The notes under the pieces were generated by a model. It searched no databases. It had not been told where the DNA came from and worked only from the letters and a program-made list of their open reading frames with translations. This document shows positions 49,406 through 63,443 of a stretch of 64,000 bases of DNA, one piece after another. This stretch comes from a virus. The position numbers and the translations under genes are program-made. Where the stretch lies: the IMG/VR virus record IMGVR_UViG_3300012211_000002. One strand, 5' to 3'. How positions within the stretch are numbered: the first letter of the stretch is position 1; every line of letters begins with the position of its first letter.

Positions 49406-49918
49406 TTACTCACCAGGAGAAGCAACCCAGTCGCTCCCGCTCTCTTCGCAGCAACATGCTAACGATTGCACTCTTGCTCCGAATCTACCACACCAAACTG
49501 ATCGACCCTCCGCATCTGCTTTCTTTGCCTCTGAGCCCCATCCACACCTGCTACAGCCAAATCCTTTCGCTTTCCCTCTAGTGCCATAATTAGCTTCCTT
49601 CTGAGTCCACTGAACTATCTGCACCGGCCAAGCTTGAGGCCCTATCATCCATTTCTCACAACTACCAGCCTCCATAGATATTATACCGGAAACATGTGAA
49701 CACAAATCTGGCTCAATCCTCATTTGACAAGTACCACACAAATATCTCCCGCTCGGATCAAATCTTATCCCCTCCTCATCATAATCTGCAACCAGTGACA
49801 TCAGCTCCCGAACCAGATTCTCTTGCGCTGGATCATACTGCACCGGCTCTTCAAACTGCTTTTTCTTTTCTGCCAGCAGTTCTACCAAAGCCTCTTCCAG
49901 ATTGAAGTCTTCACTCAT
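49406..49918 (-). CDS. Cys-rich protein with HiPIP-like motifs
   Basis: CGTC...CSHVSG.I....GSCEKW and a second Cys cluster. Confidence 0.45.
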   Translation of the reverse strand: MSEDFNLEEALVELLAEKKKQFEEPVQYDPAQENLVRELMSLVADYDEEGIRFDPSGRYLCGTCQMRIEPDLCSHVSGIISMEAGSCEKWMIGPQAWPVQIVQWTQKEANYGTRGKAKGFGCSRCGWGSEAKKADAEGRSVWCGRFGARVQSLACCCEESGSDWVASPGE

Positions 49919-50421
49919 AGCTCAAACTTTTCCCTACTATCCTGCATCAAGTACTTCACATGCTCTGGCTTAAACTGTACCACTGACTTAATTCTATCCG
50001 CCGGGATGCCACCTTGGTATTTCAGCCACTTACCCTTTGCTCCAGATCTGCCCAACGGATCACTCTCCGTATCCTCTTGCCAAGGTGTATCTCTTCTATC
50101 TAACTTCAAAATAGAAACTTTTCCACTGCCTGTTGCCTTGTTAAAAGCCCAATCCATCTTAGCTGCCCAACGAAGGGCATCGTGGGGGCTCTCAAACGCA
50201 TTTATTTCTCCTTTTCCATATCTCGATTGATTTCCTTGCTTCACCCAGTTGGAAGTCTGCATTGGACGCAAACCCTCTTTCTGAATCTTAGGAACAAGGC
50301 TTGTATGAGTCACATGATAAACACTTGCACTAGATGCTGTCCTCCCACACTTCCCTGCCTCTGGATTACAGCCACTACCAGGTCCACCACCATAGATCAG
50401 AATTGTGGAAGCCAAATTCAT
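49915..50421 (-). CDS. Leader-tagged ART-fold (Tpt1/KptA-like) enzyme
   Basis: MNLASTILIYGGGPGSGC leader; YHVT...I.KEGL. Confidence 0.65.
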   Translation of the reverse strand: MNLASTILIYGGGPGSGCNPEAGKCGRTASSASVYHVTHTSLVPKIQKEGLRPMQTSNWVKQGNQSRYGKGEINAFESPHDALRWAAKMDWAFNKATGSGKVSILKLDRRDTPWQEDTESDPLGRSGAKGKWLKYQGGIPADRIKSVVQFKPEHVKYLMQDSREKFEL

Positions 50422-51137
50422 TATCCAAAGCCTCCCACAGTTCCACTTGGAAACCCTACAACAGCAGTAGAGCTCAAAGGACGCATACCAGAGTCCGTAT
50501 GCTGCCTTGTAAGACTATCCCTACGAGCTTTTGTAGCTGCTGCTTTCCGCCTGGTTACATCCCCATATGAATCATCCGACTCACCGGGATTATCAACAGG
50601 AACTCTCTTCGCTTTCTTTAGAGACGATGGGTGAAACGTCGACCGTGGTTCTATATGACCATAACCCCCATCGTACACGTTCGGCTCTCCCAATTCCGCT
50701 GCCAGTTCCCCACTCACTATCTTTCGAAACTCTTCCATACTCACTTTCTTCATACTTCCAAAAAATCTGCTATCGTCATAGTGCTCCAAGAAAGCCTTCT
50801 TCGCATTCGCCCCTGAAGCAAAACCAAGCATCACCTTCTCCTCGTCTGTTTTCTTAAAGTCTGGCTGCTTCATAATCATAATCACATAGGCAAACTTTGC
50901 ATCTACTTTTGGACCGATAAACACATCCAAAAACTGCCCATCTTTCCCCATCGCATGCTTACTTCTAACATATCCATAGGGAATTTTCATACGAACTTTC
51001 CAGCAACCCCACTTCTTATCACACCCCTGCCTAATAGAACCCTTTCTATTCTCAACACTGATAGGAATGCCCTGGAAAACAGTCCTATAATGTAACTTAC
51101 GATTGCAGTAAAGCGTAATTGAGCAATCTAAATTCAT
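50421..51137 (-). CDS. Inorganic-pyrophosphatase-like (InPase) domain protein with leader-like N-terminus
   Basis: MNLDCSITLY; ISVEN.KGS.R...YGYV...GKDGQFLDVFIGP...DEEKVMLGF. Confidence 0.75.
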   Translation of the reverse strand: MNLDCSITLYCNRKLHYRTVFQGIPISVENRKGSIRQGCDKKWGCWKVRMKIPYGYVRSKHAMGKDGQFLDVFIGPKVDAKFAYVIMIMKQPDFKKTDEEKVMLGFASGANAKKAFLEHYDDSRFFGSMKKVSMEEFRKIVSGELAAELGEPNVYDGGYGHIEPRSTFHPSSLKKAKRVPVDNPGESDDSYGDVTRRKAAATKARRDSLTRQHTDSGMRPLSSTAVVGFPSGTVGGFG

Positions 51138-61049: not shown

Positions 61050-62029
61050 CTGGCCACCGCTACTTTCGTCTTCTCCAATTCAGCTTCTACCATGATGTTA
61101 ACCAAATCCCCAAATCCCACTTTCGGTTTCCAGCCCAACACCTTCTCTACTTTCGAATTATCCGCTCGCATATCGTAAATCTCTTGCACTCGCAGAAACC
61201 TAGGATCTACCTTCACTAAGTTCTCCGTCATATACCAATAATCTTCTGACAATCCAGCCGCTTTACATGCCTGACTTAGAAAATCTTTTACTGAATGAGA
61301 TACGCCAGTTCCAAAAACATAGTCCTGCGGCTCCTCCTGTTGCAACATACTATGCATCACTTTTACGTATTCACCAGCGAAACCCCAATCTCTTCTCGAA
61401 TCCAAATGGCCAAGCCATAAGGTTTCCATGCTACCTCTCGCCCAACCAGCTACTGCTCTGACTATCTTCCGTGTTACCATTTCTTGCCCACGCCTTGGAC
61501 TCTCGTGATTGAAAAAAATTCCACTCACCACATGTAAACCACGCTGCCTGTATAGCCCAGCCAACTTGTGAGCCGCCAATTTGGAAATACCATAAGGAGA
61601 CGTCGGATTCATAGGAGTCTCTTCCGTACATATCCCTTCATGATTCCCAAACATCTCCGACGTACAAGCCTGATACACTCGCGTATCTTTCTTAACGTCT
61701 TCTAGAATCCGCAGCAACCGACTCAGCCCTACTGTATTCACATCGAAAGTCTCTTCCGGATATTCCCATGAAATCGGAACCACCACTTGCCCTGCGAAAT
61801 TGTAGACCTCATCAGGCCAAGACTTCTGTATCGATGCCCGCAACGCTAGTTCATCCCGCATGTCCCCATATAAGTATATGACTTTCCCTATAAGATTCCT
61901 AGTGTATTCTTTCAGCACCGGATTCGATCTCACTAACCCGAAAACCCGGTAACCAAGCGCTAACAGGTATTCTGAGAGGTAACTTCCATCCTGTCCCAAA
62001 CTGCCCGTGATTAACGCCACTTTGCTCAT
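61046..62029 (-). CDS. gmd: GDP-mannose 4,6-dehydratase
   Basis: ALITGSLGQDGSYL, YQACTSEMFG, SPYGISK, FNHESPRRG..VTRKI, RDWG. Confidence 0.93.
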   Translation of the reverse strand: MSKVALITGSLGQDGSYLSEYLLALGYRVFGLVRSNPVLKEYTRNLIGKVIYLYGDMRDELALRASIQKSWPDEVYNFAGQVVVPISWEYPEETFDVNTVGLSRLLRILEDVKKDTRVYQACTSEMFGNHEGICTEETPMNPTSPYGISKLAAHKLAGLYRQRGLHVVSGIFFNHESPRRGQEMVTRKIVRAVAGWARGSMETLWLGHLDSRRDWGFAGEYVKVMHSMLQQEEPQDYVFGTGVSHSVKDFLSQACKAAGLSEDYWYMTENLVKVDPRFLRVQEIYDMRADNSKVEKVLGWKPKVGFGDLVNIMVEAELEKTKVAVAR

Positions 62030-63009
62030 GCTGACGCTCCGATCTTAACTTCCGCCTTTTTTAATCTCTCTATTTCTGCTCCAACCATTCTCTCTGCCAG
62101 CTCCTTGAAACTCGTTTCCGCTTTCCAACCCAATTCATTCCACGCTTTCTCTGGATTCGAGACTAACACTCGCACATCATTCTTCCTCATGAATCTCTCA
62201 TCGGTTTGGATCCTATGCTCTGGCACTGCCGCCATTCCAGCTGCTGTGCAACAGGCTTTGATAAATTCCATCACGGAATGATCCTCTCCCGTGCCGATTA
62301 CATAGTCGTCTGGTTTCTCTTTCTGCAACATCAGATGAAAGGCTTTTACGAAGTCCCCTGCAAATCCCCAATCCCTTCTCGACGCTGTGTTCCCAAACGC
62401 TAGATAATCTTCTCCACCCAAAGACCATCTCGCTACTGCTGCCGCTATCTTCTTAGAAGCCCGATCTTGAAACCTCCTCTCACTTTCGTGATTCAAGCAA
62501 ATTCCACATGAAACGTGCATACCCAAGTCCCGATAAATAGTAGCTAACTCATGCGCTGCCAATTTCGCAACTCCGTAAGGATCCACCGGATGCCTACTCG
62601 TTTTCTCGTCACAGGGAACTTTCACATTCCCAAACATTGAAGCACTGGAGGCTTGATACACTCTGGCATCTTTCTTCACACGATAGAGAATCTTCAACAG
62701 CCTGGACAAGCCACCATAAATTACGTCCATGGCCTCTTCTGGATAACTCCACGACAAAGGAATGCCATCGTAACCGGAGAAATTATACACTTCATCTGGA
62801 AAAGACCTATTCACCGCCGCTTCTAAGGAAGCCTGATCTCTCATATCCGCATACACGAATTCTATCTTGTCTAACATCCCCTGTAGCCAGGGAACGCTAG
62901 CTGGAGTTCTTCTAACCGTGCCAACAACTCTGTAGCCCAGCGACAGAAGATATTCTGAAAGGAAACTTCCATCCTGGCCACTAACGGACGTTATGAGAGC
63001 TGTTCTCAT
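62026..63009 (-). CDS. gmd: GDP-mannose 4,6-dehydratase paralog
   Basis: ALITSVSGQDGS, YQASSASMFG, PYGVAK, NHESERR, RDWG. Confidence 0.88.
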   Translation of the reverse strand: MRTALITSVSGQDGSFLSEYLLSLGYRVVGTVRRTPASVPWLQGMLDKIEFVYADMRDQASLEAAVNRSFPDEVYNFSGYDGIPLSWSYPEEAMDVIYGGLSRLLKILYRVKKDARVYQASSASMFGNVKVPCDEKTSRHPVDPYGVAKLAAHELATIYRDLGMHVSCGICLNHESERRFQDRASKKIAAAVARWSLGGEDYLAFGNTASRRDWGFAGDFVKAFHLMLQKEKPDDYVIGTGEDHSVMEFIKACCTAAGMAAVPEHRIQTDERFMRKNDVRVLVSNPEKAWNELGWKAETSFKELAERMVGAEIERLKKAEVKIGASA

Positions 63010-63443
63010 TCCATCACCAAAATTTCATTACCAAGATAGCCCATCTTCTGTAAACTAAGAGCTGGGGTATTCTTTGTCAACTTCAATGATCTAACCTTCT
63101 TTCCGTAGCCCTTAGCGTAAGACTTATCACCAGAATATGAGCTAACACCTTTTCTAGAAACTGGATACTTATCGTAGCCTCTATAAACTGTAACTTTTCC
63201 AGGATGAAACCTCTCTAAAGAGCCACCAGGCAAAGTCTGCTGTAATATCTTCCTAGCTTTAGCCCTAGTTTCATCTGTAGGATTCCCGAACCCAACGCTG
63301 CCTTTAGGATAGCGCCATTCCCTTACAAATTGCTGCAACTCTTCTTTACTGAACTTAGTTCGACCACATCTTCCAGCAGCTGGATTACAACCAGAACCAG
63401 GGCCGCCACCATAGATCGAAAGTGCAGTTTCCAAATTCATCAC
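63006..63443 (-). CDS. Leader-tagged R-S-E clade ADP-ribosyltransferase-like protein
   Basis: MNLETALSIYGGGPGSGC; VYRG...SSYS...NEILV. Confidence 0.7.
   Translation of the reverse strand: MMNLETALSIYGGGPGSGCNPAAGRCGRTKFSKEELQQFVREWRYPKGSVGFGNPTDETRAKARKILQQTLPGGSLERFHPGKVTVYRGYDKYPVSRKGVSSYSGDKSYAKGYGKKVRSLKLTKNTPALSLQKMGYLGNEILVME

Follow-up and report, generated by a model that had tools for sequence, protein, structure and literature searches.

Why should a run of otherwise unrelated phage enzymes begin with the same short peptide? The question is raised by a 64,000-nucleotide stretch of viral DNA (IMG/VR virus record IMGVR_UViG_3300012211_000002; hereafter the window), taken from a metagenomic contig of a phage (129.6 kb or longer), in which genes for ADP-ribosyltransferases (ARTs), a zeta-toxin kinase, an acetyltransferase and other proteins form an array on the minus strand, many of them opening with a closely similar N-terminal leader, here called the tag. 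An earlier reading of the DNA by a model without database searches (the sequence-only reading) had described this array and proposed that the leader sorts standalone effectors into the phage head. The array observation is confirmed: it is real, highly non-random and wider than first described. The explanation that we favour, by analogy and with the balance of probability leaning slightly to its side, is that the tag is a propeptide resembling the capsid-targeting sequence (CTS) of phage T4, which would be processed by the prohead protease and carried by effectors delivered with the virion. What is distinctive is a sequence-defined cassette that would link a T4-CTS-like function with the content of polyvalent proteins.

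A bipartite cassette on unrelated proteins

Seven minus-strand genes within 49915-63440 share a near-identical N-terminal peptide, composed of a 10-residue segment (the 10-mer) and, after it, a Gly-Cys part termed motif A and summarized as GGPGSGC..CGRP. In full, the leader of these genes reads M-N-(L/I)-x-x-T-(I/L)-(S/L)-(I/L)-Y-(G/A)-G-G-(P/V)-G-S-G-C, followed by a loop of four or six residues and by C-G-R-(P/T/L), with starts at 63440, 56447, 55992, 54791, 53799, 52640 and 50421. Two more genes, starting at 61049 and 53207 (the latter with GTG), bear after the same 10-mer the sequence G-T-S-E-G-A-S-K-G-W-D-A-R-G-R-G (motif B). All nine genes for which a leader and a Gly-rich motif had been claimed were found on the minus strand, the first of them with a small shift: gene and leader are present, but the codon at 63443 is a GTG, and the ATG comes one codon later, at 63440. 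The three starts said to have the 10-mer and neither motif were also seen (58234, 51137 and a 28-codon mini open reading frame at 58321), and weaker look-alikes of the 10-mer open the 677-residue gene at 60585 and a HAD-like gene at 57561. The genes interspersed in the array had been described as leaderless, which does not hold for the HAD-like gene (57561-57169): its first residues are MKLAEALLLQ, and its homologue in a relative is a HAD with the full tag (39% identity), so that this leader is a decayed copy. A pattern scan of the minus strand over the whole 64-kb window confined the leader to 50421-63440, and all genes called in the array region lie on that strand. Scans of the array for promoters and terminators remained at chance level.

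On sequence grounds, the cassette is bipartite, combining a putative propeptide that is restricted to N-termini with a core that it has in common with the spacers of polyvalent proteins. The first module is recognizable as an 11-12-residue segment, M-N-L-x-x-T-(I/L/V)-x-(I/L/V)-Y-(A/G), found at N-termini only, and the second as a Gly-rich core, either GGPGSGC-(x4 or x6)-CGR(P/K) or GTSEGASKGWDxRGRG.

Is it the peptide or the DNA that is conserved? Common 5′ ends could serve as stretches of homology for the recombination of payload cassettes, with a functionless peptide, and in line with this possibility payloads vary between syntenic relatives and two of the leaders have an identical run of 26 nucleotides. 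However, over the first 13 codons of the nine leaders the mean nucleotide identity is 74%, 38% of the codon pairs that encode the same residue are synonymous variants, exact runs common to pairs are mostly of 16 nucleotides or fewer, and the amino-acid sequence is kept across 509 protein clusters from many samples (see below). The DNA 5′ of the start codons is not conserved either. Synonymous divergence and unconserved upstream DNA together argue for selection on the amino-acid sequence rather than on a DNA repeat; recombination alone is a very improbable explanation, and a DNA-level repeat as the main function was rejected on the strength of the synonymous divergence.

The tag extends far beyond the window. 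A 29-position profile of leader and motif A, searched against 1.84 billion protein cluster representatives, matched 509 clusters at E <= 1e-3, of which 82 remained at E <= 1e-10; most of the 509 are small proteins whose residues 1-28 form the tag. Position counts rest on the 153 proteins retrieved from the 509, with 133 N-terminal and 65 internal copies. Met stands exactly 12 residues before GxGSGC in 127 of the 133 N-terminal copies, in which the conserved positions are occupied by M (127), N (112), L (128), T (106) and Y (103), and the loop counts four residues in 98 and six in 35. Among 128 tagged proteins, Pfam recognized ATLF, zeta, GNAT, ART-PolyVal, ADPrib_exo_Tox, NUDIX, InPase and RelA_SpoT payloads, as well as a PI3/PI4-type kinase, WYL, Tpt1 and PARP, and about 100 were without a Pfam match. 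On syntenic metagenome contigs the tag precedes ADPrib_exo_Tox, zeta, an ATLF-like peptidase and InPase; a RelA_SpoT gene in a syntenic contig is apparently tagged as well, judging from a motif-A copy just 5′ of its called start. The notion of a plug-and-play tag on unrelated standalone effectors is therefore strongly supported, the same tag being found on hundreds of unrelated small proteins, and the scan of related sequences with a leader profile, suggested beforehand as a check, yielded the 509 clusters; in related phages the tag stands on other payloads, such as RelA_SpoT, ADPrib_exo_Tox, ATLF-like and HAD proteins. A word-based search for motif B returned only one further protein, so that its distribution is poorly sampled, and a literature search on the motif strings led to unrelated papers only.

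A distant relative of the window's phage, G001 (an IMG/VR genome with a length of 124,954 bp and a completeness rating of 100%), has eight tag matches in the region that corresponds to the array. Among 36 further IMG/VR records that have the protease-scaffold gene described below, nine carry the tag, all in a clade of large phages (about 105-131 kb when complete; two of the nine records, of 64 and 78 kb, are partial), and none of the 55-60-kb proviruses among the 36 does.

The tagged and related genes of the array are as follows; the region past window position 64000 was read on a 108.5-kb copy of the contig (L014).

49915..50421, minus strand: tagged with motif A, 168 residues; DarT/Arr/DUF952-like ART fold (Atlas)
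50421..51137, minus strand: 10-mer only (MNLDCSITLY), 238 residues; InPase domain of polyvalent proteins (Pfam InPase PF18823, 2e-29)
52074..52640, minus strand: tagged with motif A, four-residue loop, 188 residues; payload of a family common in phages (Atlas 0.96 to viral clusters; transglutaminase-like match with TM below 0.5)
52647..53207, minus strand: tagged with 10-mer and motif B, GTG start, 186 residues; LYHGTT motif (sequence)
53209..53799, minus strand: tagged with motif A, 196 residues; possible H-Y-E-type ART with a YHGTS motif (Pfam PTS_2-RNA, Tpt1/KptA, E 0.02 only)
53796..54791, minus strand: tagged with motif A, 331 residues; zeta-toxin kinase (Pfam Zeta_toxin 9.7e-32)
55030..55992, minus strand: tagged with motif A, six-residue loop, 320 residues; weakly PI3/PI4-kinase- and HipA_C-like (Pfam PI3_PI4_kinase 2.2e-5, below cut-off; HipA_C 1.3e-3)
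55989..56447, minus strand: tagged with motif A, four-residue loop, 152 residues; payload without assigned family (sequence, Pfam)
57169..57561, minus strand: HAD-like phosphatase with degenerate leader MKLAEALLLQ (BLASTP to P0038 of G001, a HAD with the full tag, 39% identity, E 5e-17)
57935..58234, minus strand: 99-residue gene with the 10-mer only (MNLAATLKLY), without Pfam match (Pfam, translation)
58235..58321, minus strand: 28-codon mini open reading frame with little beyond the 10-mer (MNLADSMQLY...), probably a remnant (translation)
58552..60585, minus strand: 677-residue polyprotein-like effector with a weak 10-mer, MKLAQVLKLQ (motif scan)
60582..61049, minus strand: tagged with 10-mer and motif B, 155 residues; GNAT acetyltransferase (Pfam Acetyltransf_1 E 7.5e-7, above cut-off)
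63006..63440, minus strand: tagged with 10-mer and motif A, 144 residues; R-S-E-type ART fold (Atlas: DRAT/ADPrib_exo_Tox/ART clusters, TM 0.6-0.7)
63520..63999, minus strand: 3′ part of a 220-residue gene whose start beyond the window reads VNLEAAILLYAGSG, 10-mer-like (L014 9259-9921)

The payloads are unrelated to one another. Those announced by the sequence-only reading as zeta kinase, InPase and GNAT are borne out by the Pfam matches given above. Of the four ART-fold enzymes that had been counted, two are backed by structure matches (63440 and 50421), and the other two stand on weaker ground, namely the match at E 0.02 for 53799 and the YHGT motif alone for 53207; the HipA-like kinase (55992) is likewise weak, and the transglutaminase-like assignment (52640) is a lead only. 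In all three Atlas structure comparisons (63440, 52640 and 50421), the aligned fold starts at residue 27-31, which places the tag outside the payload domain. The gene at 50421 has a tagged homologue in G001, and the tag region of the gene at 53799 retrieves tagged proteins elsewhere. Past position 64000 lie four more tagged genes (L014 4795, 5283, 7323 and 9259), two with motif A, one with motif B and one with the 10-mer only. At least 15 genes of the window's phage thus carry the full cassette or the 10-mer, the highest number of tag copies in all the records examined.

The Gly-Cys core inside polyvalent proteins

What, then, is the core that follows the 10-mer? About 25 of the profile matches are proteins of 400-1483 residues with two to eight internal copies of the core (the 65 counted above), and these copies fall between the Pfam domains of polyvalent proteins, in combinations such as ADPrib_exo_Tox with NUDIX, InPase with DRAT, ATLF with zeta, and AAA_33 with a cytidylyltransferase and zeta, or together with topoisomerase IB. 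The 677-residue protein of the window is built in the same way, with three internal copies of motif B, each between domains, and a cytidylyltransferase-like domain at residues 307-422 (Pfam CTP_transf_like 2.9e-5). Before the 65 internal copies, conservation does not go beyond three positions: -4 is hydrophobic (64 of 65), -2 is A or K, and -1 is G. M-N-L, T and Y are a feature of N-terminal copies alone. The leader can therefore no longer be regarded as a purely N-terminal signal: the internal Gly-Cys copies make the core a linker or processing element, and the 10-mer part alone stays N-terminal.

The domain repertoire is that of the polyvalent proteins, including InPase (PF18823), ART-PolyVal (PF18760), zeta, RelA_SpoT, NUDIX, ATLF-like peptidase and GNAT (PMC5512222); InPase and zeta are found in the window, and ART-PolyVal, NUDIX, ATLF and RelA_SpoT among the tagged proteins at large. 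At least two effector-type domains per polypeptide, the mark of polyvalent proteins, occur in the 677-residue protein and in tagged proteins of the set P0007-P0141. Unlike in polyvalent proteins, the domains encoded in the window are mostly separate genes with their own start and putative propeptide, the 677-residue protein being the only polyprotein. The 2017 description of polyvalent proteins already speaks of domains that occur on their own and of assemblin-like peptidases, and text searches of that paper found no mention of the spacer or of an MNL leader (PMC5512222).

MuF-fused toxins offer another comparison. MuF matches are confined to four polyvalent proteins on other contigs and are sub-threshold (19-27 bits against a cut-off of 29.6 for PF04233); all four align the same end of the model, each just upstream of a core copy. 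MuF is absent from G001 at E <= 1. The gene of one polyvalent protein with eight core copies (P0007) lies between a trypsin-like serine protease gene, which overlaps its start, and a gene pair for an S78-type protease and an SU10-type capsid protein, the position where MuF usually sits; G001 has no such trypsin-like gene, nor any Pfam match to Trypsin_2, Peptidase_S78 or SU10_MCP.

Given these internal copies, the cores might be nothing but flexible linkers or processing punctuation inherited from polyvalent ancestors, and the standalone genes fission products that are never packaged. The enzymes would then act inside the infected cell, in host takeover or anti-defence, and the MNL 10-mer would have some other role, for instance in folding, in stability, as a degron or in translation initiation. 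Such an origin fits with a core that is not intrinsically an N-terminal signal, with an array mixed with non-virion metabolic genes (gmd, radical SAM, methyltransferase, QueC), with the lack of MuF in G001 and with the description of solo polyvalent domains without packaging evidence (PMC5512222). Nevertheless, a passive linker would not preserve M-N-L, T6 and Y10, at constant spacing from the core, in over 100 of 133 unrelated proteins, motif-bearing genes occur within the head or neck modules of several relatives, and a zeta toxin and ARTs have a less obvious use undelivered, in the phage's own infected cell, than injected. We therefore regard this alternative as unlikely, albeit deserving of serious attention.

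The same internal copies bear on export. The leader ends in GG, as double-glycine bacteriocin-type leaders do, and GSGC, about 17 residues from the start, superficially resembles a lipoprotein lipobox, which would make the enzymes secreted toxins. Yet up to eight core copies inside one polypeptide are unlike any export signal, the leader has neither a basic n-region nor a long hydrophobic core, Peptidase_C39 (PF03412) was not found in five tag-bearing genomes, and all contexts are phage genomes. Export is thus extremely improbable, and both the lipoprotein and the double-glycine variants were rejected for the internal copies, the failure to find C39 and the lack of a hydrophobic core. An intein or other self-cleaving element was also rejected, as there is no conserved His-Asn or catalytic context and the Asn before the second Cys is not strictly conserved.

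Head genes, the prohead protease and a candidate packaging signal

In G001, the order of genes is portal, a 514-residue gene, a 329-residue gene where the capsid gene is expected, the gene of a head-tail adaptor (PHROG 442) and, in the neck module, that of a motif-B protein. An AlphaFold2 model of the first 200 residues of the 514-residue protein, built with 52 homologues (mean predicted local distance difference test score, pLDDT, 86), matches the assemblins of human cytomegalovirus, Epstein-Barr virus and Kaposi's sarcoma-associated herpesvirus as well as T4 gp21, with Foldseek probabilities of about 1. The rest of the protein is acidic with long helical stretches, and its homologues have weak coiled-coil-type Pfam matches. 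We read it as a probable protease-scaffold fusion, for which 64 homologues were found, and the structural model indicates that the lineage does have a prohead protease of assemblin/gp21 fold, known from this relative; the copy of the window's phage would lie outside the window.

Tagged genes keep close company with these genes in other relatives. Four motif-A proteins, two of them DRAT-like ARTs, are encoded directly upstream of the protease-scaffold and capsid genes in G010; a leader-bearing open reading frame abuts the protease-scaffold gene, just upstream of it, in G013; and the neck module of L022 includes one motif-B protein and one protein with both B and A. In the window's phage, the array is preceded by tail and lysis genes, which share its strand. 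Upstream of the tagged genes read past position 64000, a 265-residue motif-A protein and a 146-residue motif-B protein lie between a 1230-residue protein and a VanY endolysin, and still further upstream are large virion genes, including a match to a PHROG virion and tail protein.

The internal proteins (IPs) and Alt of T4 bear N-terminal propeptides of 10-20 residues that direct them into the prohead core and are removed by gp21; once mature, the proteins leave the head together with the DNA (PMC7411985, PMC3012670). Like the CTS of IPI-III and Alt, the tag is a short N-terminal peptide common to otherwise unrelated proteins, and ARTs occur among the payloads here just as an ADP-ribosyltransferase and anti-defence proteins occur among the T4 cargo (PMC7411985, PMC3012670). 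Several differences are apparent, however: T4 cuts after Glu (L/I-x-E) and the candidate site here is h-x-(A/K/G)↓G (h, hydrophobic), a second conserved module follows the putative propeptide and also occurs internally, and the cargo genes, as known from genes alone, are many more, at least 15 in one phage. Compared by eye, and to our knowledge, the MNLxxTIxIY consensus is unlike the T4 CTS, and the claim made here is one of analogy, not of homology. Encapsulin cargo-loading peptides are also short, with alternating hydrophobic residues beside a Gly-rich linker, and route unrelated enzymes into a shell of HK97 fold; they are usually C-terminal and uncleaved, whereas the present leader is N-terminal. 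In phage SPN3US, of the phiKZ type, N-terminal propeptides of the ejection proteins were proposed to target the prohead; these measure 110-130 residues and have T4-like Glu sites (PMC7411985), in contrast to the 11-12 residues considered here.

By this analogy, the array would supply ARTs, a zeta kinase, a GNAT, an InPase, a kinase-like protein, a nucleotidyltransferase polyprotein and others, each with the bipartite cassette and made late together with the virion genes. The first module would play the part of the T4 CTS and lead the protein into the prohead during assembly, where the scaffold-fused protease of assemblin fold would cut at h-x-(A/K/G)↓G, just before the core; the same cut would strip the propeptide from standalone proteins and divide polyvalent proteins into single domains. 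The candidate site h-x-(A/K/G)-G resembles the predicted sites of the pseudorabies virus assemblin (YLQA-T and VQA-S), and herpesvirus assemblins combine a protease with a scaffold, as we read the protein here, and use sites with a hydrophobic P3 and a small P1 (PMC4498786).

The evidence that effectors are targeted to the capsid and injected, as the sequence-only reading had it, is circumstantial, and consists of the use of the core as a polyvalent spacer, the head and neck gene neighbours and the assemblin-fold protease. A number of points weigh against this explanation. Targeting, cleavage position, packaging and injection are all steps that we infer from genomic association and analogy. 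The proposed cut site amounts to three weakly informative positions, and the strongly conserved P′ side (GGPGSGC..CGRP) is left unexplained by a simple cleavage site; its role may lie in recognition, in holding the protein in the head or in its passage along with the DNA. Foldseek TM-scores to the assemblins are only about 0.4, and Pfam S78 has no match in G001. The window does not cover the head module of its own phage, so that inferences about protease and capsid are drawn from relatives, and G001 is 68-78% identical to this phage in few alignable DNA stretches. The trypsin-like protease beside P0007 may be a dedicated processing enzyme there. Non-virion genes, for sugar and deazaguanine-type biosynthesis, are scattered through the array, and the tag was not found in cultured phages (megablast with the array and tblastn with both leader types, 50,697 records).

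Could the tag act chiefly as a docking handle and not so much as a cleavage site? The Cys pair of its core might be linked by a metal ion or a disulfide bond to a second Cys pair, which the protease-scaffold protein bears at its N-terminus, and the scaffold would then carry the cargo into the prohead. Such a pair was seen in the G001 protein (L010 9083-9020) and among homologues P0156-P0217; in the form CxxxC or C-G-x-G-N-x-x-x-C, it occurs in eight larger genomes, seven of them tagged, and is missing in almost all tag-less genomes examined. The protease-scaffold N-terminus of G001 and L030 begins MKL or MNL with a hydrophobic pattern like that of the leader, and the low pLDDT of this segment would leave it free to interact. 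On the other side, the co-occurrence is phylogenetically confounded, since these genomes are related, close relatives have both traits and the counts are not independent; G010 has motif-A proteins and a protease N-terminus without the pair; and motif B occupies the same position without any Cys. Co-folding of the G001 protease domain (200 residues) with a 45-residue tag gave a median of 0.01 against a mark of 0.32, which weighs neither way. We consider docking through the Cys pairs quite improbable. The same low standing is given to a bolder extension, a universal and portable load-and-cut module of the 105-131-kb phage clade that docks by its Cys loop on the protease-scaffold and fuses with, or splits from, polyvalent proteins: the MNL propeptide and the Cys loop would meet the Cys pair of the protease-scaffold, possibly via a shared metal ion, and any enzyme given the 28 residues would be loaded into the head and then clipped free.

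Should the favoured reading, a cleaved propeptide for head loading, prove true, the cassette would add a second system of capsid targeting, which has no sequence kinship with the T4 CTS and is much better defined by its sequence, with a 28-residue consensus in 509 clusters. Hundreds of uncharacterized small proteins would become candidate injected effectors or anti-defence factors, and the cutting of polyvalent proteins into working parts, left open by the 2017 description, would be explained. A compact tag of this kind could also be put to use for packing foreign proteins in phage heads, a purpose for which the T4 CTS is employed already. Even without packaging, the relation between standalone effector genes and polyvalent spacers provides a clear view of gene fission and fusion in phage arsenals.

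Surroundings of the array

PHROGs and Pfam leave most structural genes of the clade unnamed. The portal gene stands at the opposite end of the window, around 1302-2873, the remaining head module being outside; it is split into pieces (184-2873, minus strand), as the tblastn matches to the portal of a relative fall at 2636-1467, 1218-784 and 873-184.

Several genes of biosynthetic type accompany the array. Two tandem GDP-mannose-dehydratase/epimerase genes are found among the tagged genes (window 61046-63009, minus strand; L014 5829-9262), with which a B12-binding radical SAM enzyme and a C-methyltransferase are also interleaved, and the same mix is present in a relative (L004). Just downstream of the array (45124-48573, minus strand), Pfam labels identify QueC, an aminotransferase, a PTPS-like gene and a glycosyltransferase, which point to a 7-deazaguanine-type DNA modification pathway.

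Within the array, an untagged gene of 301 residues (51134-52039, minus strand) contains repeated C-x-C-G-C-G/GH motifs without a Pfam family and could encode a mobile endonuclease. Elsewhere in the window, a phage Ro60 homologue is encoded at 39086-40924 (minus strand), with a TROVE domain (E 1e-53) and a Ro60 von Willebrand factor A domain (E 6e-54). Lastly, two otherwise different proteins (L014 1438-2601 and L014 9259-9921) have in common the stretch W-R-T-I-(H/N)-G-L-H-V-F-I-K-(E/K)-G-E-S-P-K-D-A-F, and one of this pair has the 10-mer-like start VNLEAAILLY.

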